Origin: a virus
Lineage: Duplodnaviria > Heunggongvirae > Uroviricota > Caudoviricetes
Strand: one strand, 5' to 3'
DNA: 40,058 nucleotides
Virus record (IMG/VR): IMGVR_UViG_3300028456_000007
The position numbers and the translations under genes are program-made. Each line of letters opens with the position of its first letter. Within the stretch, counting starts at the first letter, position 1. The notes beneath the pieces were generated by a model. The model did no database searches and was not told the DNA's origin. It saw only the letters and a program-made list of their open reading frames with translations. Of the stretch, positions 1,341 through 37,005 are shown in pieces.

Positions 1341-2375
1341 ATGCCACTAAAAGCGTCACTTAACGGAAAAGAAATTCATTCTTTTGAATTTAACTCTCAG
1401 GAATGGGAATATCTTAAACAGACATATAAAAGCCAGTCTTTGTTTATGTCGTGCTGTGGTCAGCCTGGTATACCTAAAACAAGCAAACTTAATAACTATT
1501 ACTTTGCACATAAATCCAAAAGCGATTGCCTGTATGCGAAAGAAAGCGCAGAACATTTATATCTCAAATTCTTAATCGCAAAATTAGCCAGTGATGCTGG
1601 CTGGTCAGTTACTACCGAAAAACAAGGGGCGACCCCAGCAGGAGAACAATGGATTGCCGATGTGTTTTGTACCAGAAATAACGCGAAACTGGTTTTCGAA
1701 GTACAGTTATCACCGCAAAAAGACGATGAATTTAAAGAACGTCAAAAACGATATATCGCATCAGGAGTCCGTGCACTGTGGTTGCGAAAGTTACGTAAAG
1801 GAAGTAAAGAGCATGGTGGGAATATATACCATAGCTACGATTTACCTGTTTTTGGTGTGCGTCAGAATGAAAATGGGGACTTGTATCTACCACAGTTTGG
1901 GATTAGTGTCAGGGAGTTTATCGCGGGTGTTTTTGCCAGAAAGCTATTATGGTTCCCAAAGGTTGGGGATGTGCTGACTGCAAAAATAGAATCGCGAGTT
2001 ACAAAATGCTGGAGATGTAAGAAACGAACTGGAATTATCAGAGGTATTTCTGTTTACAGTAAGTCCGTATTCGTCAAGTTTTTATCTTTTCGTGATTCTG
2101 ATGTCAAAGAACTAATAGCCACTCACGTGGATAACAAAAAACTCTGGGCGGCTGGAATTGGTACTGTTAAGGACAGAGACAGTGATTGTTATTTATCTAA
2201 CTGTTGCATACATTGTTATTCGATTATAGGAGATTTCTTTTTATTAGAGGTTTTCGACTATCCGAATGATAAACAAAAGATAATGATAGAATTTACTTTT
2301 AATTATGCTAGCAATATGAAAATCTTATCCAGCGAGTGGGTATTTGATGGTAAAAAAGCTGAAATATTTTTCTGA
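1341..2375 (+). CDS. CoiA-like family protein (predicted PD-(D/E)xK-type nuclease with Cys clusters)
   Basis: 344-aa ORF; CC..YYFAH motif followed by ESAEH..K..E..QWIADV..FEVQLS resembles competence protein CoiA family; extra CWRC...NCCIHC cluster; GGGAGGG SD upstream; clearly AT-rich versus rest of window. Confidence 0.55.
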   Translation: MPLKASLNGKEIHSFEFNSQEWEYLKQTYKSQSLFMSCCGQPGIPKTSKLNNYYFAHKSKSDCLYAKESAEHLYLKFLIAKLASDAGWSVTTEKQGATPAGEQWIADVFCTRNNAKLVFEVQLSPQKDDEFKERQKRYIASGVRALWLRKLRKGSKEHGGNIYHSYDLPVFGVRQNENGDLYLPQFGISVREFIAGVFARKLLWFPKVGDVLTAKIESRVTKCWRCKKRTGIIRGISVYSKSVFVKFLSFRDSDVKELIATHVDNKKLWAAGIGTVKDRDSDCYLSNCCIHCYSIIGDFFLLEVFDYPNDKQKIMIEFTFNYASNMKILSSEWVFDGKKAEIFF

Positions 2376-3834: not shown

Positions 3835-4659
3835 TCAGGCGGTGAAAGTACCAATAAAGGTTTCTACTTTGCTGTCTTTGAATTTCTCAACAAGCAGATC
3901 ACGAAATTCGTTAGCCATTTCTTCCTGCACCGCTTCCAGCTGAATAATGCGCAGAACCAGTACAGGACGATCGCCAGTGATAATGCTGAGGCGTAATTTA
4001 AACGGACGTTCTTTCAGACCTTCAAACGGAACGCATTTAAATTCAAATGCCACTGGCATAATGTCTTTGGTCTTCGCTTCGACAGACTCCATCAGGGAGC
4101 GTTTGCCGCTGAAGTCATTATCTTCAAAATCAGCGGTCTGGTTTGCTTCAATCGTGATTTTACGGACTGCCGCAGCCGCTTTGGTTGCCTGAATGGTGTC
4201 ACCATTAGCATCAAAGCCCACAAGGTAGTCGGCCCAGTCTTCAATCCATTCTGCCAGTGACTTCTGGGAGTTACGCTCGCCATTAACAGACAACAGAGCA
4301 GAAAACGGTGCTGTCTTTTTCAGTTTGAGAGTGGCGGTGTTATCTGCGTGACCTGGTTCATCAATAGTACCCAGGTTAAGCACACTGACGGCTCGCATAT
4401 TATCGGCATCGATAAAGCAGCGGGTGCCTTCATCTGCAAGATCTTTAGAATAACGGGTAAAGTCATCGATGCAGGCAGTGGAAAGCGCACCACGGAAACG
4501 GAAGCGATTTAAATTAAATTTTTCCAGATCATGAATGCGGAAATTCTCAGGCAATGCCACAGCATCGGCACCAATCTTACTGATAATTTCATTAACACCC
4601 TGAGCAGAAATAAGGGCATGGATTTGATTAATTGCGGTTGCGTCTAAGTTCTGAGACAT
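3835..4659 (-). CDS. prophage early-region protein, YfdQ-like (DUF2303-type)
   Basis: 274-aa ORF; recalled resemblance to CPS-53/KpLE1 YfdQ family; unverified. Confidence 0.5.
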
Positions 4660-5545: not shown

Positions 5546-6199
5546 TCAAAAATCCATTATTACTTGTTTGACAAGACCAACTATTCTGCAGTTCTCACCG
5601 CATTCAATAGTTTTATAGTTAGGATTTAGTGGGACGAGATACCTGTTCGGCCAGTCCTCAACAAATTTTTTGAGTGTCGCTTCTTGCCCACCATTGATAT
5701 GGGCAACAACGATTTTTCCGTTAATACACTCTGTATCAATAATATCTGGCTCTACGATAACGATAGAACCTTCTGGTATCGATGGTGAGCCGAGGGGATT
5801 GGTCATTGAATCACCACGGACCCGTAGTGCAAATGCCATTTCTGATACAAGGGCGGTAGTATAAACCCACTCTTCAGCATCTTCTTTCCTGACACCAGGC
5901 TCCGTCATTGTCCATGAACCCGCCTGAACCCACGAGATGAGGGGGACTTTTTTAACTGCGAATATTTCAGGTTTTAGATTTATCTTTGGTTCAGGCGAGC
6001 CTTTTCCGCTAACAAGCCACAGAGGATCGCATTTAAGTGCGTTGGCTAGGGCTTGAAGGTTGGCTCCATTTGGTTGGTAGTCGTCCTTTTCCCATCCAGT
6101 AACCGTGACACGGTTCACACCAGTCAAATCAGCCAGTGCTTGTTGTGTCAGGTTCAGTTCTTTTCGCCTTTGGCGAATACGATCACTCATGTTCATCAT
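5546..6199 (-). CDS. CI-like phage repressor (N-terminal HTH, C-terminal LexA/S24 peptidase-like autocleavage domain)
   Basis: HTH segment LTQQALADLTGVNRVTVTGWE; C-terminal VRGDSM ... KIVVAHINGGQEATLKKF typical of S24 family; start ambiguous among ATGs 6199/6196/6190 (ORF track 6223). Confidence 0.85.
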   Translation of the reverse strand: MMNMSDRIRQRRKELNLTQQALADLTGVNRVTVTGWEKDDYQPNGANLQALANALKCDPLWLVSGKGSPEPKINLKPEIFAVKKVPLISWVQAGSWTMTEPGVRKEDAEEWVYTTALVSEMAFALRVRGDSMTNPLGSPSIPEGSIVIVEPDIIDTECINGKIVVAHINGGQEATLKKFVEDWPNRYLVPLNPNYKTIECGENCRIVGLVKQVIMDF

Positions 6200-6263
6200 G
6201 TAGGCAATCCTACCACATGCCAATGTAGGATTCTTGACATTGACATGTTGGATATCCTACATT
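6198..6263 (+). promoter_or_regulatory. OR operator cluster with PR-like promoter
   Basis: three sites with palindromic core GT(A/T)GGATATCC(A/T)AC: 6200..6213, 6225..6238 (half-site), 6247..6260; TTGACA 6234..6239 - 18 bp - TACATT 6258..6263; cro ATG at 6295. Confidence 0.55.
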
Positions 6264-7098: not shown

Positions 7099-8246
7099 AC
7101 AGTTTAACGGCAAATAACCGTTTGTCGCAACAGCTGGTGGTCAGCGTCGCTGAACACCTGTTGTTACGGCATGAATGCAGATTACCAAATCACCTGGCTG
7201 TAAGTAACCACAGAGAACTTTACCTGACTGTGGGGGGCGAGTTGTGCAGGAACTTAACCGCTGGTTTCGTGACGGAAGAGGGCTTTATGTCCATGTTATT
7301 CGTTGGGAGCCAGAAACACAGCGCGTTATCTATCTTCGCAAAGACTACCCGCATGAGTGCTTTAGTCCTTTGTGGAAATTCAGGCGTGATTTTGTTGAGT
7401 GTGAAGGACCACCAGCACATTGATTCTGCCATTCCGGGACGTTACACTGTTCAGGCACCTTATAAAGCGGGTGCCGGGCGTGGAAACCCGGAATTCACCA
7501 AAGCGCACAACCGCGCTCTTGCGGTTTTTTTGTGTCATGAGCAGCATTACGCCCAAATTATGGTGGGGCGTGCAGGGCCAACTTCGGTTGGGCCGGGTTC
7601 TTTGGTGACCGGTATTTCCACCCCTGTACGTCTCACCACCAATAAGGTCGTGGAAAGCCTTGGTGGTGAGTTATTTAAAATCACCAAAGAGGCTGCCATC
7701 ATGGCTACGATCCCAACCCTCACTCAACCTGAAATTGCCATCGTTGATGGTCAGGCTGTTACTTCATCCCTGGCTGTTGCCAACTTCTTCTCCAAACGTC
7801 ATGACGATGTACTGAAAAAGATCCGCACGCTTGAATGCTCCGCATCATTCACTGCCCGCAATTTTTCGGTGAGTGATTACACCGATTGCACAGGCCGCAA
7901 ACTACCTTGCTATCAAATAACCCGCGACGGCTTTGCGTTTCTTGCTATGGGTTTCACGGGTAAACGTGCTGCCCAGTTCAAAGAGGCATACATCAATGCC
8001 TTTAACCAGATGGAGAAACAGCTTTCAAGGCCCGCTGTACCGAGCGACGTTGCACATAACGCCAGCGTTCTCTGTTCCTACATTTCATCAATTCATCAGG
8101 TCTGGCTGCAGCAGCTTTATCCTATGTTGGCAAAAGCCGAATCTCCGCTGGCTGTTAGCTTATATGACTATATTAATGATGCTTCGGCGCTGGCCTGCCT
8201 CATAAATTTGTCGCTGAACCCTTCAGAGGTAAGGGGGCGCAAATGA
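7095..8246 (+). CDS. Rha-family phage regulatory protein (Rha-like domain in C-terminal half; alternative start ATG 7701)
   Basis: ATGA coupling to upstream gene at 7095; Rha-like segment IAIVDGQAVTSSLAVANFF...YQITRDGFAFLAMGFTGKRA; AAGAGG SD before ATG 7701; no in-frame stop between 7095 and 8246. Confidence 0.5.
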   Translation: MNSLTANNRLSQQLVVSVAEHLLLRHECRLPNHLAVSNHRELYLTVGGELCRNLTAGFVTEEGFMSMLFVGSQKHSALSIFAKTTRMSALVLCGNSGVILLSVKDHQHIDSAIPGRYTVQAPYKAGAGRGNPEFTKAHNRALAVFLCHEQHYAQIMVGRAGPTSVGPGSLVTGISTPVRLTTNKVVESLGGELFKITKEAAIMATIPTLTQPEIAIVDGQAVTSSLAVANFFSKRHDDVLKKIRTLECSASFTARNFSVSDYTDCTGRKLPCYQITRDGFAFLAMGFTGKRAAQFKEAYINAFNQMEKQLSRPAVPSDVAHNASVLCSYISSIHQVWLQQLYPMLAKAESPLAVSLYDYINDASALACLINLSLNPSEVRGRK

Positions 8247-8467
8247 TCCGGAATATTTTCAAACGTTTTACCAATCAGACTTTCCGTTGTCCTCGTCCGG
8301 GTCAGTGGTACACCACGCCTGCAGGGCATGTTCTACGTGTTAGCCTGGTTGACCGTGAATGTCAGAAGGTGGTTTGTGAACCGCTGGGCCGTAATTACCG
8401 CGTCAGTATGCCGCTTATAGCCTTTCGCTCCAGAAAAAACATGAAGCATCTCGGAGGTGCAGCATGA
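8243..8467 (+). CDS. hypothetical protein
   Basis: 74-aa ORF with ATGA coupling to upstream and downstream genes. Confidence 0.4.
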   Translation: MIRNIFKRFTNQTFRCPRPGQWYTTPAGHVLRVSLVDRECQKVVCEPLGRNYRVSMPLIAFRSRKNMKHLGGAA

Positions 8468-9282
8468 GTATGGAGCTGATGGTTAAAGCGATGAAAATTC
8501 GAGTGGGTAATCCATTGCGAAAACTGGTTCTGATCAAGCTGGCTGATAATGCCAGCGATCAGGGTGAGTGCTGGCCCAGCTACCAGCATATTGCTGACCA
8601 GTGCGAGATTAGCAAACGTTCTGTGATGAATCATATTGCGGCCCTTTGTGATTCCGGGCTGGTAAAAAAAGTCACCCGGAAAGGTGAAAAAGGTAACTCA
8701 AGTAATATCTATCTCCTTCATCTTGATGGTGCAGGAGATTCACTAGGGGGTAGTGCAAATAATTCACTATCTGGTGCAGCAAATTCACCAGGTAGTGCAG
8801 GAGTTGCACCAGGGGGTGGTGCAGGAGATTCACCCAGAACCAGTCACTCTTTTGAACCAGTCAAAGAACCAGTCAATGAACCAATAGCTGTTGGTGCATC
8901 TGCTGATGAGTCCGTGCGAGTTCGTTCAAACCGACCGGAATACTCTCCGGAGTTTGAGCAGGCATGGCTGGCATACCCCAAACGTGCTGGTGGCAATTCA
9001 AAATCTGCAGCCTTCAAAGCCTGGAAAGCCCGTTTGAATGAGGGGGTAAAACCCGAAACCATGCTGGAAGGTGTGAAACGCTACGCGGGCTGGGTATCTG
9101 CGATGGGTAACAGCGGCACACAATTTGTGAAACAGGCTGTCACGTTCTTTGGTCCGGATCGTCATTTCGAAGAATCCTGGGAAGTTCCTGCGGTATCTGC
9201 AGCCAGACGCGAGGACCCGTACTTCAAAGCCAGTTACGACAACGTGGACTACAGCCAGATCCCGGCAGGATTCAGGGGGTGA
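8464..9282 (+). CDS. replication initiation protein (N-terminal winged-helix domain, O-like)
   Basis: N-terminal LRKLVLIKLADNASDQGECWPSYQHIADQCEISKRSVMNHIAAL resembles phage replication-protein HTH domains; Gly/Ser linker encoded by iteron-like repeats. Confidence 0.5.
   Translation: MSMELMVKAMKIRVGNPLRKLVLIKLADNASDQGECWPSYQHIADQCEISKRSVMNHIAALCDSGLVKKVTRKGEKGNSSNIYLLHLDGAGDSLGGSANNSLSGAANSPGSAGVAPGGGAGDSPRTSHSFEPVKEPVNEPIAVGASADESVRVRSNRPEYSPEFEQAWLAYPKRAGGNSKSAAFKAWKARLNEGVKPETMLEGVKRYAGWVSAMGNSGTQFVKQAVTFFGPDRHFEESWEVPAVSAARREDPYFKASYDNVDYSQIPAGFRG
8728..8875. repeat. iteron-like direct repeats inside replication gene (candidate ori)
   Basis: five 16-bp near-palindromic units (GGTGCAGGAGATTCAC type) at 8728, 8752, 8773, 8794, 8818 with 21-24 bp spacing, then three perfect GAACCAGTCA copies at 8837, 8854, 8866. 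Confidence 0.45.
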
Positions 9283-9284
9283 TC

Positions 9285-9773
9285 ATGAGTCTTTTGAATG
9301 AAGTTCAGAAATTCATTGAAGCCCATCCGGGGTGTACTTCCGGAGACATTGCGGATGCTTTTGCAGGTTACTCACGGCAGCGCGTTCTGCAGTCAGCAAG
9401 CAAGTTACGTCAGAGTGGGCGTGTGGCTCACCGTTGTGAAGGGGATACACGCAGACATTTCCCGCGCCTGACTGAGAGAGCGCAGGAGCCGGAACCACAA
9501 CCAGTTCGTGAAACCAGACCTGTGCGCAATTTCTATGTCGGCACTAACGATCCCCGGGTGATTTTGTGCCTGACCCGCCAGGCGGAAGAACTGGAGTCCA
9601 GGGGCTTATACCGTCGTGCTGCAACGGTGTGGATGGCGGCATTCCGTGAAAGCCACTCCCAGCCAGAACGAAACAATTTTCTGGCGCGTCGTGAGCAGTG
9701 TTTACGGAAAAGCAGCAAGCGCGCTGTATCGGGTGATGAGTGGTATCTGTCAGGGAATTACGTGGGGGCTTAA
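9285..9773 (+). CDS. PerC/Pch-like transcriptional regulator family protein with N-terminal extension
   Basis: C-terminal AEELESRGLYRRAATVWMAAF ... ARREQCLRK matches PerC-family pattern as recalled; ATG 9285 after GTG 9279. Confidence 0.45.
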   Translation: MSLLNEVQKFIEAHPGCTSGDIADAFAGYSRQRVLQSASKLRQSGRVAHRCEGDTRRHFPRLTERAQEPEPQPVRETRPVRNFYVGTNDPRVILCLTRQAEELESRGLYRRAATVWMAAFRESHSQPERNNFLARREQCLRKSSKRAVSGDEWYLSGNYVGA

Positions 9774-12974: not shown

Positions 12975-13727
12975 ATGAACCTTGAAGCCTTACCGAAATA
13001 TTACTCCCCGAAATCTCCAAAACTGAGCGATGACGCACCGGCGACAGGCTCTGGTGGTTTAACAATTACGGATGTGATGGCTGCGCAGGGGATGGTGCAG
13101 TCGAAAGCACCGCTTGGGTTTGCCTTATTCCTGGCAAAAGTTGGTGTTCAGGATCCTCAGTTTGCGATTGAAGGTCTGCTCAATTACGCGATGGCACTGG
13201 ATAACCCGACATTGAATAAATTGAGTGAAGAAACCCGGCTACAGATCATTCCTTACCTTGTGAATTTTGCCTTTGCTGATTATTCCAGGTCTGCGGCAAG
13301 TAAGGCTCGCTGTGAGCATTGTGCTGGTACTGGATTTCATAATGTATTGCGCGAAGTGGTGAAACACTCCAGAAGCGGGGAATCTGTTATCAAGGAAGAG
13401 TGGGTGAAGGAACTATGTCAGCATTGTCATGGTAAGGGAGAAGTCAGCACAGCGTGTAGAGGGTGTAAGGGGAAAGGTATTGTACTGGATGAAAAAAGAA
13501 CCCGGCTTCATGGTGCGCCTGTTTATAAGATTTGTGGGCGTTGCAATGGAAACCGGTTTAGCCGTTTACCAACCACACTGGCGCGGCATCATGTCCAGAA
13601 GCTGGTACCGGACCTGACGGATTATCAGTGGTACAAAGGATATGCAGATGTCATTGATAAACTGGTTACAAAGTGCTGGCAGGAAGAAGCATATGCAGAG
13701 ACACAATTGAGAAAAGTGACAAGATAA
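12975..13727 (+). CDS. Q-like late gene antiterminator (zinc-finger type)
   Basis: CEHCAGTG...CQHCHGKG...CRGCKGKG...CGRCNG zinc-binding repeats; position just upstream of a short terminated leader and lysis genes. Confidence 0.65.
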   Translation: MNLEALPKYYSPKSPKLSDDAPATGSGGLTITDVMAAQGMVQSKAPLGFALFLAKVGVQDPQFAIEGLLNYAMALDNPTLNKLSEETRLQIIPYLVNFAFADYSRSAASKARCEHCAGTGFHNVLREVVKHSRSGESVIKEEWVKELCQHCHGKGEVSTACRGCKGKGIVLDEKRTRLHGAPVYKICGRCNGNRFSRLPTTLARHHVQKLVPDLTDYQWYKGYADVIDKLVTKCWQEEAYAETQLRKVTR

Positions 13728-15872: not shown

Positions 15873-16026
15873 ACCCCCTCAGCCTGATTTACCTGATCAT
15901 TTTACGTGGGGCTCGAGCTTAGATCTGAATGTCGCCTTGTTGTCTGCATTGGCGCAGTGTAATACCGATAAAGCTGACATCAGAAGGATTGAAGTTGAGC
16001 GTGGTCACATCATGCAAAAAAAATGA
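15757..16026 (+). CDS. Rz1-like o-spanin lipoprotein (overlapping Rz in +1 frame)
   Basis: lipobox LLTGC, proline-rich mature region; starts inside Rz and extends past its stop. Confidence 0.6.
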   Translation: MMIVLHVLCLLPLLTGCGSTRTVYVQVPVVPLPASLTAEPPQPDLPDHFTWGSSLDLNVALLSALAQCNTDKADIRRIEVERGHIMQKK

Positions 16027-16118
16027 TGTTAACTTTGTTTTGTTCCTTGATTTGATATGTGATGGCCCAATAGATACAAAGCACCTGATTTTGGTGACTC
16101 TTTTAAAGGGCTTTACAC

Positions 16119-16439
16119 ATGAAAGATGGTATCTATTTTGTTGTTTTCAGAAGCAATCAACGTGATTTTGGTAATGGTACCGTAGTTGTCAAAAACAATG
16201 CAGTAAACGGCGGAGATTTTGGTTTTACGTATCAGGGAAAAATTGACGGTAGCCAACTTATTCTGCGCGTATCGCAGCATGATTTAAATGTCACCTCGGT
16301 TTTCCCTGGGGTAAAGAACTTTGAATTGAGTCTTTCTTTGCAGGAACGAGGACGTGATTACCTGTTAAATGGATCTGTGGTCGGAATGCCTCAGATGCAA
16401 ATTTCAATTAGTGCAAAATACATTGGTGATCTGATTTAG
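16119..16439 (+). CDS. hypothetical protein (moron between lysis and packaging genes)
   Basis: 106-aa AT-rich ORF with its own downstream terminator. Confidence 0.45.
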   Translation: MKDGIYFVVFRSNQRDFGNGTVVVKNNAVNGGDFGFTYQGKIDGSQLILRVSQHDLNVTSVFPGVKNFELSLSLQERGRDYLLNGSVVGMPQMQISISAKYIGDLI

Positions 16440-16460
16440 TTTATCGAGATGATAATTGAA

Positions 16461-16480
16461 CCGCCTCCGGGCGGTTTTTT
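16461..16480 (+). terminator. rho-independent terminator
   Basis: CCGCC-TCCG-GGCGG hairpin followed by T6. Confidence 0.6.
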
Positions 16481-16531
16481 ATTGCCATTTCTATGGTCTG
16501 TTCCATCGTAATAACTTAAAGGGAAGCATTA

Positions 16532-25947: not shown

Positions 25948-26303
25948 TGGCCCGTATCGGGGGAACCTGTTATTTCAAAATTGACGGTCAGCAGCTATCG
26001 CTGACCGGCGGCATTGAGGTGCCCATGAACAGGACGGTCAATGATGACATCATCGGCCTGGACGGTTCAGTGGACCGCAAGGAAACTCACCGTGCGCCTT
26101 ATGTCAAAGGGACCTTCAAGGTGCCGAAGAATTTTCCGGTGAGCAAAATCACCTCGTCTGATGAGATGACAATCACTGCCGAGCTGGCGAACGGTCAGGT
26201 CTATGTATTGTCGTCAGCCTGGCTGCACGGCGAAGCGAACCATAATGCCGAAGAAGGTACGGTTGATCTTGAGTTCCACGGTGAAGAAGGGGATTACCAG
26301 TGA
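25947..26303 (+). CDS. tail tube protein
   Basis: 118 aa directly after sheath. Confidence 0.7.
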   Translation: MARIGGTCYFKIDGQQLSLTGGIEVPMNRTVNDDIIGLDGSVDRKETHRAPYVKGTFKVPKNFPVSKITSSDEMTITAELANGQVYVLSSAWLHGEANHNAEEGTVDLEFHGEEGDYQ

Positions 26304-26623
26304 TTGAGCTTGTACTTAAAAAACCGATCATCGCCCACAAAGAAACACTGCATGTGCTGGAAATACGTGAGCCTACGTATGACGAGATTGAGGCGCTGGG
26401 GTTCCCTTTCTCTGTTTCGCCTGATGGTGGTATGAAAATGGACAGTCAGGTAGCGCTGAAATATATCCCGCTTCTGGCCGGGATCCCGCGCTCGTCTGCA
26501 GCGCAGATGACGAAGCTGGATATTTTTAAGGCAGGCATGATTGTAATGCGTTTTTTTACCGGCTTGGAGACGGAAGAGACCTCCGGAAGCGATTCTACAA
26601 TGTCGCGTGGTTCTGGAAATTAA
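26300..26623 (+). CDS. tail assembly chaperone
   Basis: small ORF between tube and tape measure. Confidence 0.5.
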   Translation: MIELVLKKPIIAHKETLHVLEIREPTYDEIEALGFPFSVSPDGGMKMDSQVALKYIPLLAGIPRSSAAQMTKLDIFKAGMIVMRFFTGLETEETSGSDSTMSRGSGN

Positions 26624-26707
26624 ACCCCCTTGAACTTCGCCGGACGGCTATTTCCCACTTTGCTGATCTGGAGGCAGAGGCCGTCCGTATAAATGAGGAG
26701 ATGAAGC

Positions 26708-28609
26708 ATGGCTGATAATTTTCAGCTTAAAGCCATCATAACCGCCGTTGACAGGCTATCCGGCCCGCTTAAAGGTATGCAGCGTCAGCTTAAGGGGTTT
26801 CAGAAAGAAGTCTCCAGCCTTGCTCTGGGCGCTGCCGGGGCGGGTACTGCAATAATGGGGGCACTGGCACTCCCTGTAAAATCAGCCATCACCCTTGAAT
26901 CGAAGATGGCTGATGTCCGCAAAGTGGTGGACGGTCTGGATACGCCGGATGCGTTTAAGGCCATGACGGAGCAGGTACGCGCTTTGTCTACTGAGCTTCC
27001 CATGTCTGCAGACGGGATCGCGGAAATTGTGGCGGCTGGCGGTCAGGCCGGGATTGCACGTGATGAACTGATGCAGTTTGCCACTGATGCGGTGAAGATG
27101 GGCGTGGCCTTTGATACCACGGCTGAAGAGTCCGGGCAGATGATGGCCCAGTGGCGTACTGCGTTTAATATGACGCAGGATGAAGTGGCCGGGCTGGCTG
27201 ACAAAATCAACTACCTTGGTAATACCGGCCCGGCGAATGCGAAGAAAATCTCCGATATTGTTACGCGTATTGGTCCTTTAGGTGGTGTTGCAGGTGTGGC
27301 TTCCGGCGAAATCGCGGCAATGGGGGCAACCATTGCCGGGATGGGCGTGGAGTCAGAAATTGCCGCCACAGGGATCAAGAACTTCATGCTTTCCCTGACC
27401 GCGGGAAATTCCGCGACAAAATCGCAGAAACAGGCATTACGTTTTCTGCGGATCAATCCGAAGAAATTAGCTGCTGATATGCAGAAAGATGCCCGGGGAA
27501 CCATGCTGTCTGTACTGGATGCGATGGCTAAAGTGCCTAAAGAAAAACAGGCAGCTGTGCTGAATGCCCTGTTCGGGAAAGAGTCTCTGGGCGCGATAGC
27601 ACCTCTGCTGACTAACCTTGATTTGTTGCGTACCAACTTCAGGCGGGTTGCGGATTCCCAGCAGTATGGCAGTTCGATGCAGAAGGAATATGCTTCGAGG
27701 GCAGCGACGACGGAAAACCAGCTTTTACTTCTGCAAAATCAACTTGATGCCATTTCTTCCACTCTGGGGGAAACGTTTCTTCCTGAGGTTAATGATGGTC
27801 TTGAAGCGGTAAAACCGCTCCTTGAGGAAGTGAGAACGTTTGTCCGTGAAAACCCGGAGCTCGTTAAGACCATTGCTAAAATCGGTCTGGCTTTACTGAC
27901 AGTGGGGGCCGCTGCAGGCTCTTTGTCCAGAATCATGAAAGTTCTCGGCGGTGTGATGAATATGACGCCTGCTAAGGGGCTGATTGCTCTTCTGGTTGGT
28001 GGCGCTTACCTCATTATTGATAATTGGGAAACCGTAGGTCCTGTCATAAAAAAAGTCTGGCACGTGGTGGATGAAACGGCGCAGGCGATGGGGGGATGGG
28101 AAACTGTTCTGAAAGCGATTGCCCTGTTTATGGCAACCAAATGGGTTGCTGACGTTACCAAATCCATTACCGCAGTGACCAGAGAGATGCGTACGCTGGG
28201 GAAGGTATCGGCAGAAACGGGATTGATGGGGAAAGGCCGCGGCTTTATCGGGAAGGCCGGGGTATATGGTTTTCTGGGAACCCTGATGTATGAGCCGGTT
28301 AAAGATACTTTGGAAAGTGTTGTTCCTGAAGATACGGTTAACTGGCTGGATAATAAAGGGCTGTTTCTGGCTTCAGACTGGACGCCTTTTTTTGATCGTA
28401 AAGAGTACGAGCAGTATCAGGCCAGCCTGAGTCAGTACAAACCCAATGTTCCGCTGTTGAATCCATCTTCTTCCATGACACAGCACAGCGAGCTGAAAGT
28501 CACGTTCGAGAATGCTCCGCCAGGTATGAAGATAATTGATGTACCGGGCAAAGCCGATCCCCTGATGAAAATCACGCACGATGTGGGGTATTCTCCATTC
28601 AGACGATAA
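26708..28609 (+). CDS. tail tape measure protein
   Basis: 633 aa, Ala/Gly-rich helical, central hydrophobic segment. Confidence 0.85.
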   Translation: MADNFQLKAIITAVDRLSGPLKGMQRQLKGFQKEVSSLALGAAGAGTAIMGALALPVKSAITLESKMADVRKVVDGLDTPDAFKAMTEQVRALSTELPMSADGIAEIVAAGGQAGIARDELMQFATDAVKMGVAFDTTAEESGQMMAQWRTAFNMTQDEVAGLADKINYLGNTGPANAKKISDIVTRIGPLGGVAGVASGEIAAMGATIAGMGVESEIAATGIKNFMLSLTAGNSATKSQKQALRFLRINPKKLAADMQKDARGTMLSVLDAMAKVPKEKQAAVLNALFGKESLGAIAPLLTNLDLLRTNFRRVADSQQYGSSMQKEYASRAATTENQLLLLQNQLDAISSTLGETFLPEVNDGLEAVKPLLEEVRTFVRENPELVKTIAKIGLALLTVGAAAGSLSRIMKVLGGVMNMTPAKGLIALLVGGAYLIIDNWETVGPVIKKVWHVVDETAQAMGGWETVLKAIALFMATKWVADVTKSITAVTREMRTLGKVSAETGLMGKGRGFIGKAGVYGFLGTLMYEPVKDTLESVVPEDTVNWLDNKGLFLASDWTPFFDRKEYEQYQASLSQYKPNVPLLNPSSSMTQHSELKVTFENAPPGMKIIDVPGKADPLMKITHDVGYSPFRR

Positions 28610-28673
28610 TATAACTACTTTAATCAAGTAGGGTTATTGAGTGGTAAAGTTTGTGCTGAATGTAGGAGAGAAT

Positions 28674-29162
28674 ATGAAGAAAATGTTTATATTGTTGTTG
28701 GCTGTAGGACTGCCATTAAACTCCTTTGCGAAGCCAGTAACGGAAAAGCAGCTTGCTACATACTTTATAGATAACGTTAAAACTTCAGCGGATAAGAATA
28801 TAGATCTAGATGTAGAGGGAATAAATAGACTGTCTGTAATATGCCCAGCAAAGTCGGCAAGTGGAACTCTTTTAATAAAAAAAGCATCCTACGAGTTTAA
28901 TAAAAGCATTGGTGCTTTTGATTTTGAAAATAACTCACAATCTGCACCATTGACTTTTATTGTACCAATTAGTGAGGATGAAAATAACTTTGACTCGGAA
29001 ATTATTGGTTTCTCTTTTGCATTTAAAATGCCAAGAGGGCAATTCTTTGTTGATGTTACGAAAACAGGGAAGGTAAAGGCTGGCGTAAATATTAGTGGTG
29101 AAAGCGGAATTACTTATTCATCATGTAGAATAGATACTCATAATGTTGATTATGATCGTTAA
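28674..29162 (+). CDS. secreted hypothetical protein (moron inside tail operon)
   Basis: AGGAGA SD before ATG 28674 (MKKMFILLLAVGLPLNSFA signal peptide); strongly AT-rich; own terminator. Confidence 0.55.
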   Translation: MKKMFILLLAVGLPLNSFAKPVTEKQLATYFIDNVKTSADKNIDLDVEGINRLSVICPAKSASGTLLIKKASYEFNKSIGAFDFENNSQSAPLTFIVPISEDENNFDSEIIGFSFAFKMPRGQFFVDVTKTGKVKAGVNISGESGITYSSCRIDTHNVDYDR

Positions 29163-29182
29163 TTTTATTACCTAATAAAAAA

Positions 29183-29208
29183 CCGCGTTTACACGCGGTT
29201 TTTATTTG
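29183..29208. terminator. rho-independent terminator (bidirectional)
   Basis: ACCGCG-TTTACA-CGCGGT hairpin flanked by A-run upstream and T-run downstream. Confidence 0.6.
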
Positions 29209-29218
29209 AGGTGACGCC

Positions 29219-30592
29219 ATGGATTTTTCTCATATTTCTTCGTACCTATCCTCTGATTCTCGAAGTGGCTGGCGTGAAAAGCTACTTGAAGCATCATTTC
29301 GAGGTGTGCCGTTTAAGGTTGAAGAAGAAAGTGCGGGAACCGGTCGCCGTGTGGAAACACATGAATACCCGAACCGCGACAAGCCCTATACCGAAGATCT
29401 GGGAAAAGTCACTTTCCGCCCGTCCATCACAGCTTATGTGGTGGGAGATGACTGCTTTGACCAGCGCGATCGCCTGATTGAAGCGCTGAATAAACCCGGT
29501 CCCGGCACGCTTGTCCACCCGACATATGGTGAGCTGAAAGTCTGTGTTGACGGGGAAGTTCGGGTCAGCACATCGAAAAGTGAAGGGCGTATTGTCCGCT
29601 TTGACCTGAAGTTTGTCGAAGCAGGAGAACTCTCTTACCCCACATCAGGTGCGGCGACGGCGCAGACGCTGATGTCATCCTGTTCTGCACTGGATGACTG
29701 CATCAGTGACAGCTTCAGCGGTTTCAGTATCGATGGTGTGGCGGATTTCGTGCAGAACGACGTTATCGGTAATGCCAGCATAATGCTGGGGTATGTTTCT
29801 GATGCGATGAAAGTGGTGGATTCTGCCGTATCGGATGCCGCCAGGCTGTTGCAGGGGGATATCTCGGTACTTCTGCCGCCGCCATCGTCAGGCAAAAATT
29901 TCGTTGAGCAGGTGCAGAAAATGTGGCGTACCGGGAAACGCCTTTATGGTAACGCCAGCGACCTGGTCACCATGATCAAAACGCTTTCCGGTGTCAGCCT
30001 CGGCAGCGATCTGCAACCGCGCGGCGTCTGGAAAACGGACAGTAAAACCACCGCCACGGCGACGCAGCAGCGTAACGTGGTTGCCAGCACCCTTCGTACG
30101 ACCGCAATCAGCGAAGCGGCGTATGCCGTCACCCGATTGCCTGCGCCAACAACTTCCGCGGTGATGCAGAATTCCGCAGTGGGGCAGGCAACAACACCTG
30201 CGCAGAGCACTGGCTGGCCTTCCGTCACGCATCCGGCACTGAACAATGCACCGGCGGTGAAAAACACAGTTGACCTGCCGACGTGGGAAGAACTGACTGA
30301 CATTCGCGACACACTGAATACGGCAATTGATAAGGAGTTGTCCCGTACAACCAGTGATGCGCTGTTTCTGGCGCTGCGCCGGGTGAAAGCAGATCTGAAT
30401 GCGGATATCAACACGCGCCTTGAACAGTCTGCACGGATCATTCAGCGCACGCCGGATGAGGTTTTACCCGCGCTGGTGCTGGCGGCGACCTGGTTTGATA
30501 ACGCGGCGCGTGATGCGGACATTATCCGGCGTAATGCCATTACGCATCCCGGCTTTGTGCCGGTGATCCCTCTGAAGGTGCCAGTGCAATGA
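29219..30592 (+). CDS. DNA circulation protein (Mu gp43-like)
   Basis: N-terminal region and position after tape measure. Confidence 0.7.
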   Translation: MDFSHISSYLSSDSRSGWREKLLEASFRGVPFKVEEESAGTGRRVETHEYPNRDKPYTEDLGKVTFRPSITAYVVGDDCFDQRDRLIEALNKPGPGTLVHPTYGELKVCVDGEVRVSTSKSEGRIVRFDLKFVEAGELSYPTSGAATAQTLMSSCSALDDCISDSFSGFSIDGVADFVQNDVIGNASIMLGYVSDAMKVVDSAVSDAARLLQGDISVLLPPPSSGKNFVEQVQKMWRTGKRLYGNASDLVTMIKTLSGVSLGSDLQPRGVWKTDSKTTATATQQRNVVASTLRTTAISEAAYAVTRLPAPTTSAVMQNSAVGQATTPAQSTGWPSVTHPALNNAPAVKNTVDLPTWEELTDIRDTLNTAIDKELSRTTSDALFLALRRVKADLNADINTRLEQSARIIQRTPDEVLPALVLAATWFDNAARDADIIRRNAITHPGFVPVIPLKVPVQ

Positions 30593-36441: not shown

Positions 36442-37005
36442 ATGATTTACGGGTATGTTCGTGTATCAACAAATCATCAGGATACAGAGTTGCAACGTCT
36501 TGCACTTGAGTCAGCTGGCTGTGAGCGAATTTATGAAGAATATGCCAGTGGCAGAACAGCTAATCGCCCTGTGTTAAAGGAATTAATTACGGTGATGAAA
36601 AGTGGAGATGAGTTGATTGTCTGGAAGTTAGATCGGATAGGGAGAAATGTGCTGCATGCGCTATTGATGTTTCAAAATCTGCACGAAAAAGGTGTTAATT
36701 TTCGGAGTATTACAGATGGCGTAGACCTGAAAACAGCAAGTGGTCGCTATAATTTCCGTAATATTCTTTCTGCTGCGCAGTATGAATCTGATTTGAATAG
36801 CGAGCGAACTTTAGCTGGTTTGGCTATTGCCAGATCCAAAGGCCGGATTGGTGGGCGTAGACCGAAGTTTAGCGACGAGCAGTGGCAACAGATGGGAGCG
36901 CTCATAGCGGCAGGGAAATCACGGCGTTATGTTGCACGTATCTATAACGTTGGGCTATCAACCCTATATAAACGATTTCCTGTTACTGGCATTCAAACGA
37001 AATAA
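36442..37005 (+). CDS. DNA invertase, serine recombinase (Pin/Gin/Hin/Cin family)
   Basis: YGYVRVSTNHQ catalytic Ser motif, resolvase-type N-terminal domain, C-terminal HTH; AGGAGAA SD. Confidence 0.9.
   Translation: MIYGYVRVSTNHQDTELQRLALESAGCERIYEEYASGRTANRPVLKELITVMKSGDELIVWKLDRIGRNVLHALLMFQNLHEKGVNFRSITDGVDLKTASGRYNFRNILSAAQYESDLNSERTLAGLAIARSKGRIGGRRPKFSDEQWQQMGALIAAGKSRRYVARIYNVGLSTLYKRFPVTGIQTK

Follow-up and report, generated by a model that had tools for sequence, protein, structure and literature searches.

Morons are the genes through which prophages pay rent to their hosts, and most moron products are uncharacterized; the Z/fun and tin/old sites of P2 are hotspots for such temperate-phage cargo. 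By the definition of Juhala and Hendrix, as summarized in PMC3594210, a moron is extra DNA between genes that are adjacent in relatives, with a deviant base composition, a promoter and a terminator of its own, and expression from the repressed prophage. The founding example is gene 15 of HK97, an exclusion-protein gene located within the tail operon beside the tape-measure gene (PMC3594210), and superinfection exclusion by HK97 gp15 was described by Juhala et al. 2000 and Cumby et al. 2012 (as summarized in PMC3594210). In T4, Spackle acts in the periplasm as an inhibitor of the gp5 tail lysozyme (PMC7677548). Here we analyze a single gene (28674..29162, + strand; 162 amino acids) in the 40,058-nucleotide virus record IMGVR_UViG_3300028456_000007 (hereafter, the window), which represents a temperate phage whose regulation is lambdoid and whose contractile tail is of the Mu type. 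We propose, with a probability of about 0.6, that this gene is a classical moron at a module junction of the prophage, that its exported product is made in the lysogen, and that the product has a protective role in the periplasm. We consider it very probable that the gene is a dispensable moron encoding an exported, non-virion protein, and we tentatively place exclusion of superinfecting phages by a soluble periplasmic protection factor first among its possible functions.

The composition and terminator of the gene are those of a moron. Its guanine plus cytosine (GC) content is 34.4%, compared with 51.6% in the tape-measure gene and 55.2% in gpN, and its third-position GC is 26%, compared with 54–58% in the flanking genes. 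The region is the lowest-GC 489-nt stretch of the window, in which the minimum is 33.5% and the median 51%. A rho-independent terminator (29178..29207, +; inverted repeat I1) begins 15 bases past the stop codon, with an 11-bp perfect stem, a 4-nt loop and a T-run; its perfectly complementary arms (29178–29188 and 29193–29203) are followed by TTTTTATTT. The folding energy is −20.4 kcal/mol (z = −7.0), and none of 200 shuffled sequences folds as well. A consensus terminator scan did not report the hairpin, presumably because the stem is extended by A/T pairs that take up the T-run. Rfam matches at the gene were all sub-threshold and due to the terminator hairpin, so an RNA element was rejected. 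The ATG start lies five bases past the ribosome-binding site AGGAG (28664–28668), at the end of a 64-bp upstream spacer (28610..28673, +), and the identical 489-nt coding sequence is annotated by RefSeq as a hypothetical protein in strain H10407 of enterotoxigenic Escherichia coli (ETEC).

The product carries a predicted Sec/signal-peptidase-I signal peptide of 19 codons (28674..28730, +), with an n-region MKK, an h-region FILLLAVGLPL and a c-region NSFA↓KP (the arrow marks cleavage), which places the cut between MKKMFILLLAVGLPLNSFA and K, with small residues at −3 and −1. What remains is a mature protein of 143 amino acids (28731..29162 including the stop codon, +; 15.7 kDa, pI 5.2) that matches phrog_5586 (E 2.6e-85). 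Signal peptides were judged by hand-applied rules run as a script (n/h/c regions, −3/−1, lipobox). The call for the window protein is supported by nine other members of the family, which have a corresponding xxA↓K site where they align with it, so that under these rules the window protein and those nine members qualify for Sec export and cleavage by signal peptidase I. The same rules found no lipobox cysteine in the N-terminus of the protein. A preliminary description of the sequence had reported this open reading frame (ORF), its AT-richness and its strong terminator, a typical signal peptide cleaved after SFA, and a location between the tape-measure and DNA-circulation genes, and it had suggested a signal-peptide and lipoprotein check; each of these observations stands, and the check returned a signal-peptidase-I site with no lipobox.

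The flanking genes make the site recognizable in relatives. To the left lies a tail tape-measure gene (26708..28609, +; phrog_28, E 2.5e-142; 100% identical to the SfIV protein over the aligned part) and to the right a gene for a Mu gpN-like "DNA circulation" or baseplate hub protein (29219..30592, +; phrog_184, phrog_17109). The region studied is 100% identical to Escherichia phage vB_EcoM-720R4, and the prophage is closely related to Shigella phage SfIV, where the same two genes (tape measure 100% over the aligned part, gpN 98%) are separated by only 24 bp. Relative to this empty site the window differs over 28600..29266 (+; alignment A1), a net gain of ~576 bp, and homology resumes at ~29267. 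The first ~17 codons of gpN (29219–29266 in the window, compared with 4081–4130 of locus L002) are wholly unlike SfIV and the rest is 98% identical, indicating that the replaced segment reaches into the N-terminus of gpN. The gpN N-terminus is variable in other lineages too. No flanking direct or inverted repeats were found around the gene, and a transposon-like insertion was rejected.

The same contrast between filled and empty sites recurs in bacterial genomes. About 210 complete E. coli genomes contain both flanks; 101 of them carry the cassette and the remainder are empty, with spans of 1371 bp and 795 bp (SfIV-like), respectively. Complete E. coli genomes carry the cassette at a frequency of ~2%; ETEC H10407 and avian pathogenic E. 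coli (APEC) strains are among the carriers. SfIV is an inducible, plaque-forming myovirus (PMC3851460), and because it forms plaques without the gene, the gene is dispensable for an infectious virion. IS1 elements interrupt the gene in two independent genomes (locus L037, 5122–6381, and hit H5 in E. coli PEC122), so insertions in it are tolerated. A 99.8% identical cassette lies on a 204-kb conjugative plasmid of the APEC O78:H51 strain E18005 (hit H34, NZ_CP126947.1, 186011–186619), which implies that the plasmid carries a prophage or prophage fragment. In a degraded prophage (L026, 5583–6001), a deletion fuses the Rz/Rz1 spanin genes to a point 53 bp upstream of the moron start; this prophage has lost the genes from terminase to tape measure and kept the moron and the baseplate genes.

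These observations bear on the possibility that the protein is a tail assembly or virion component, such as a chaperone or a distal tail protein, that goes with this particular type of tape measure. Its position would fit such a role, since 38 viral contigs, two genome contigs and locus L055 all place the gene directly behind a same-family tape-measure gene, and where the gpN flank is present the homologue lies between the tape-measure gene and gpN (with a HIRAN-domain gene intervening in L053). However, SfIV has an identical tape-measure protein and forms plaques without the gene, the gene is missing from about half of the E. coli prophages with matching flanks, and IS-disrupted copies exist. 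A conserved Sec signal peptide would take the protein out of the cytoplasm, where tails are assembled, homologues occur outside tail modules, and BFVD held no virion-protein match. We regard this explanation as close to refuted; the export signal together with the stand-alone phage-plasmid homologues makes any structural or assembly role very unlikely. The preliminary description had treated the gene as cargo for an exported protein rather than as a tail part, and both the empty sites, in SfIV and in about half of the E. coli prophages, and the homologues in the maintenance regions of phage-plasmids agree with it.

The protein belongs to a small family that is confined to phages and phage-plasmids. 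An exhaustive HMMER search of 1.84 billion representatives returned 17 matches to the family, and a search of 5.8 billion clusters returned 10–14; in PHROGs the family is phrog_5586, with unknown function. The ORF is more than a chance reading frame, as it is conserved as a protein family down to 26–30% identity with invariant cysteines: the two residues, Cys57 and Cys151 in the window protein, are present in all aligned members (alignment A3). A signal peptide was present in 10 of the 10 full-length members checked, with the cleavage site at the aligned position. All members with a named host come from Enterobacterales, and the family was found only in phage and phage-plasmid contexts and never at a chromosomal housekeeping locus. 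A Firmicutes locus from the genome scan (L009) was discarded as spurious, the match lying inside a 726-amino-acid methyltransferase-like ORF; two further Firmicutes loci (L010 and L011) gave equally weak matches, 25–26% identity over the same 80 residues. Of 50,697 phage records searched by tblastn with P0007, a homologue with 49% identity that is frequent in Shigella flexneri, vB_EcoM-720R4 alone gave a match.

Within tail modules the family keeps to one place. A scan of IMG/VR yielded 38 loci with homologues 43–100% identical to the window protein, and in every locus with both flanks, the homologue was bounded by the tape-measure gene and gpN of a Mu-type tail module. P0007 and the more distant P0014 (34%) occupy this slot as well. 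The tail-slot homologues are all AT-rich (35–40% GC, compared with 47–57%). Homologues that are 43–50% identical share the slot even though the surrounding modules have diverged to 45–71% identity in the tape measure and 53–72% in gpN. The preliminary description had called the gene inserted; as a recent one-off event this does not hold, because such homologues sit in the same slot of deeply diverged tail modules. The gene is instead an old resident of a hotspot and has been repeatedly lost or exchanged.

Several of these lineages differ in detail. In the P0007 subfamily (for example, L033, 5995–6477), the signal peptide contains a lipobox-like LTSC as well as an AQA↓K signal-peptidase-I site, so that this sister subfamily of Shigella and E. 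coli may consist of lipoproteins rather than soluble proteins. In L053 (2387–2974), a HIRAN-domain gene (33% GC) separates the moron homologue from the tape-measure gene, giving two cargo genes at that site. In the metagenomic L040 lineage (7879–9749; also L041–L044, L046 and L049), the interval from gpN to gpP contains two additional ORFs of 528 and 94 amino acids; both lack an export signal and may therefore be an added tail or receptor-binding component.

Terminators of unrelated sequence follow the gene in five diverged lineages (the window type, L033/L035/L037, L039, L045 and L055), and phage-plasmid copies have them too; in L040, no comparable hairpin was evident in 58 nt of downstream sequence. 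The recurrence of terminators that differ in sequence argues that termination after the moron gene is under selection. Distant homologues with 26–30% identity (P0020, P0018 from a Pantoea assembly, and P0021) lie outside tail modules, in phage-plasmid maintenance regions beside IncFII RepA, ParA, toxin–antitoxin pairs and a cI-like repressor; no relative of these phage-plasmids was found in PLSDB. The phage-plasmid loci L051 and L054 share an order of hairpin, conserved AT-rich box (TTATTTAAATAAATATTTAAT), ribosome-binding site, gene and terminator, and judged from this arrangement the gene reads there as an obvious stand-alone unit.

A periplasmic function confined to the lytic cycle would read the same region differently: the gene would be expressed from the late transcript only, and its product would serve the dying cell's progeny phage, for example in shielding of receptors or debris that would otherwise waste them, in late exclusion or in lysis timing. 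The gene lies inside the late operon and on its strand, behind a 64-bp spacer with no significant promoter, its position beside the tape-measure gene is kept over deep divergence, and in L055 the gaps to the neighboring genes, as called, are only 17 nt. Under an antiterminated polymerase alone, however, a strong terminator after the gene in five diverged lineages is hard to explain; the phage-plasmid homologues stand alone, at a distance from late genes and with replication, partition and repressor genes as neighbors, and SfIV plaques normally without the gene. We judge a purely lytic role to be very improbable.

In the mechanism that we propose, the moron would be transcribed independently in the lysogen, and its terminator would keep the lysogen transcript from running into the baseplate genes. 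In the lytic cycle, RNA polymerase modified by Q would read past the terminator and leave the tail operon uninterrupted; this step is suggested by the presence of a Q-type antiterminator gene in the prophage (12975..13727, +; PF03589 Antiterm, E 1.1e-53) and by established lambdoid biology. The precursor would be exported by Sec and cleaved after SFA, and the mature acidic barrel of 15.7 kDa would be oxidized in the periplasm to a soluble form with a Cys57–Cys151 disulfide. There it would block an envelope-crossing step of a superinfecting phage, either DNA entry by way of the tail tip and tape measure or the action of a tail-associated wall hydrolase. Exclusion is ranked first on three grounds: the precedents of HK97 gp15 and T4 Spackle, the exclusively phage and phage-plasmid distribution of the family, and neighbors at the same slot that include a Sie-like (superinfection exclusion) family.

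Structure prediction suggested a shape for this protein. AlphaFold2 gave a predicted local distance difference test (pLDDT) score of 41 with a three-sequence alignment and of 85.2, with a predicted template-modeling score (pTM) of 0.78, with a 10-sequence alignment that included remote homologues. The model has an N-terminal helix (residues 24–41) followed by an eight-stranded up-and-down beta-barrel. In it, Cys57 lies just past strand 1 and Cys151 within strand 8, which fits a disulfide closing the barrel from strand 1 to strand 8. Generic fold matches were to uncharacterized lipocalin-like or MoaF-like domains, to avidins and de novo designed barrels, and to Treponema Tp0751 and a type VI immunity protein. 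The structure prediction recommended by the preliminary description was thus fruitful in part, with a confident helix and barrel model and no specific structural relative.

The family also carries a motif pair, SASG ... YxFxKSxG, that resembles the motifs of MliC. In MliC/PliC proteins the corresponding sequences, SxSGAxY and YxxxTKG, follow strands 4 and 6 of the barrel, and we confirmed the MliC sequence of E. coli with PDB entry 2f09 before the profile–profile comparison. The look-alike motifs of the window family follow strand 1 and not strand 4. Membership of MliC/PliC is rejected on the profile–profile comparison and on this difference in motif position, and a generic resemblance of fold is all that is left. 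The 163-amino-acid secreted protein and the 225-amino-acid lipoprotein that occupy the same slot elsewhere (see below) showed no hhalign similarity to phrog_5586 and were excluded as relatives.

The predicted fold lends itself to another explanation, in which the protein is a host-fitness or lysogenic-conversion factor unrelated to phages. In the periplasm, the barrel would serve as a binder of some small ligand or as an inhibitor of a host-derived or competitor-derived enzyme such as a lysozyme, another wall hydrolase or a type VI effector, and so would help the lysogen to survive in animals or in competition. The fold class is common to lipocalin and avidin binders, to the MliC/PliC/PhiA/ACP hydrolase inhibitors and to a type VI immunity protein, and the predicted periplasmic location with a disulfide is compatible with such functions. 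Carriers of the family include strains of ETEC, APEC and Shigella isolated from animals and humans, and morons such as lambda Lom play such roles (PMC3594210). On the other hand, there is no MliC/PliC profile similarity and no Pfam match, the motifs sit after the wrong strand, the family is confined to phage and phage-plasmid contexts, and one neighbor at the slot belongs to a Sie-like family. We consider a host-fitness role unlikely, and phage exclusion remains our preferred function.

Several results weigh against the proposal of a lysogen-expressed protection factor. A consensus scan found no sigma-70 promoter on the + strand upstream of the gene, and weight-matrix scores over the 64-bp spacer and the 3′ end of the tape-measure gene reached 7.0–7.5 at best, compared with a background median of 6.2. 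The argument for independent expression in the lysogen comes from the terminator and the stand-alone phage-plasmid copies, with the promoter signal at background, and the gene, lying in the late operon, would be made in lytic growth too. The promoter is the weak link of the mechanism. As to function, Foldseek found nothing significant in the PDB or among the BFVD viral models, and hydrolase inhibitors score no better than avidins, lipocalin-like proteins and de novo barrels. The MliC/PliC lysozyme inhibitors (PF09864) received an hhalign probability of 0.09%, with no Pfam match. Pfam (E <= 10), NCBIfam and PADLOC gave no usable family for the protein, and no defense, Sie or virulence family was matched (0 families in PADLOC, 0 in NCBIfam, and function unknown for phrog_5586). 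Within subfamilies, dN/dS (the ratio of nonsynonymous to synonymous substitution rates) is 0.26–0.71, based on few substitutions and uninformative on function.

Other searches and signals complete this picture. A profile search of PDB sequences returned nothing below E 0.4, and Pfam, NCBIfam and PADLOC scans of the 49%-identical paralogue gave nothing usable, the lone match in the scans being a sub-threshold Pect-lyase. By eye, a GATAAT hexamer resembling a −10 element lies at 28605–28610, across the tape-measure stop codon and the next base. In L039 and L045, a better −35 element occurs at the same distance (score ~9, 90th percentile).

The site itself is a cargo hotspot. In prophages of the UTI89 type, the tube protein is 98–100% and gpN 97% identical to the window, whereas TAC and the tape measure are 44% and 24% identical; the TAC and tape-measure pair has been swapped as a cassette (26300–28609 in the window, compared with 1170–3410 in L004/L005). 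Because the pair is exchanged between otherwise near-identical modules, both edges of the tape-measure block are mosaic recombination boundaries. This second module type is present in 864 genomes; its slot is usually empty, and other cargo genes occupy it in a substantial minority of the sampled rows. The four other cargos are mutually unrelated and AT-rich, and each has its own terminator. They are a 163-amino-acid secreted protein with a cleavable signal peptide (L057, 648–1139; phrog_8976), a 225-amino-acid lipoprotein with an LLGGC lipobox (L059, 639–1316; phrog_1353), a 176-amino-acid protein with an N-terminal membrane anchor (L060, 1040–1570, with an IS5-cut copy in L006, 2013–3415; phrog_5485) and an OB-fold, tRNA_anti-like gene (L058, 581–982, − strand) that matches phrog_8545, "superinfection exclusion Sie-like" (E 1.3e-43). 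Three of the four are thus predicted to be exported or membrane-anchored, and the fourth is the Sie-like match. The junction between the tape-measure gene and gpN of Mu-type-tail prophages is therefore both a recombination boundary and a recurrent cargo hotspot, with at least five cargo genes in E. coli.

The preliminary description had argued from the premise that tail operons are normally uninterrupted. That premise is a poor one, since HK97 gene 15 lies in a tail operon (PMC3594210) and at least five cargo genes occur at the present junction. The lysogenic-conversion or exclusion function that the description suggested is plausible, and its overall view of the gene is sound. We found no description of this slot in the searchable literature, and nothing on the accession of the moron protein or on phage 720R4.

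A bolder version of the exclusion proposal is that the junction is, in enterobacterial prophages of this tail type, a dedicated hotspot for anti-phage functions at the envelope, and that phrog_5586 is a new class of soluble periplasmic exclusion protein that catches incoming Mu-tail myoviruses by their tail tip, tape measure or gpN complex on its way through the periplasm. Were this true, the linkage to the tape-measure gene would reflect co-evolution of the exclusion factor with the injection machinery that it spares or targets. We put it forward as a speculation that is quite unlikely to hold in full.

The remainder of the window contains regulatory and morphogenetic genes. A cI-like repressor gene (5546..6223, −) accompanies the Q-type antiterminator gene, and holin, endolysin, spanin, large terminase and integrase genes are recognizable. 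The tail module comprises sheath, tube, TAC, tape measure, gpN, gpP and gp45–48. A serine invertase of the Gin/Hin type (36442–37005) lies beside tail-fiber and fiber-assembly genes, which by analogy with Mu and P1 suggests an invertible host-range segment. Two other low-GC islands (36–40%) lie at 450–2400 and 15950–16500. The first contains small ORFs and a 344-amino-acid ORF (1341..2375) with a CoiA-like nuclease domain, for which there was no PADLOC or PHROG match; the second lies just past the spanin genes and contains an ORF (16119..16439) of phrog_2483, of unknown function. Both islands are probably additional morons.

As an element type, the moron is textbook knowledge, and our findings add no new principle. 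What is new is an uncharacterized family of periplasmic barrels and the recognition of the junction between the tape-measure gene and gpN as a recurrent site for exported cargo. The pair vB_EcoM-720R4 and SfIV offers a natural, isogenic comparison of filled and empty sites and hence a clean experimental handle, to which the confident model of a small soluble periplasmic protein and at least four exchangeable cargos at the same site contribute. If the protein proves to act in exclusion, the repertoire of temperate coliphages would gain a soluble mechanism located in the periplasm, and the junction would be flagged as a place to mine for envelope-level defenses; if it is a host-fitness factor, pathogenic E. 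coli and Shigella would have a new lysogenic-conversion trait.

Compared with known systems, the gene is closest in organization to HK97 gene 15. Both are single small genes of deviant composition with their own terminator, both lie in the tail operon beside the tape-measure gene and are absent from close relatives, and both have an envelope-located product, as predicted for the window protein. HK97 gene 15, however, occupies a slot on the opposite side of the tape-measure gene, and its product gp15, a relative of YebO, is a small protein of the inner membrane; the window protein is by prediction a soluble, exported beta-barrel with no sequence relationship to gp15. Expression from the prophage and exclusion have been demonstrated for gp15, while the window moron is known from its sequence and lacks a clear promoter. 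T4 Spackle is a nearer counterpart in biochemical character, both being small, Sec-exported, soluble periplasmic phage proteins (in our case by prediction), and Spackle blocks the superinfecting phage after adsorption, which is the mechanism that we propose here. Spackle is helical and, unlike the window moron, is an early gene of a lytic phage, and it has no sequence similarity to the window family (by the tblastn search with P0007). The window protein would be functionally like Spackle or gp15 though unrelated to either, and P1 Sim, likewise without a match in that tblastn search, is a further analogue. Among barrels, the MliC/PliC/PhiA inhibitors lack the N-terminal helix of the window protein, which is ~50 residues longer, and unrelated barrels match the model equally well or better. 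Finally, the slot resembles the Z/fun and tin/old sites of P2 in being a fixed junction of conserved morphogenetic genes that holds differing AT-rich accessory genes across relatives; it differs from them in lying between the tape-measure gene and gpN of Mu-type-tail (SfIV/SfV-like) prophages and in holding mostly exported or membrane proteins, where the P2 sites hold cytoplasmic defense enzymes.

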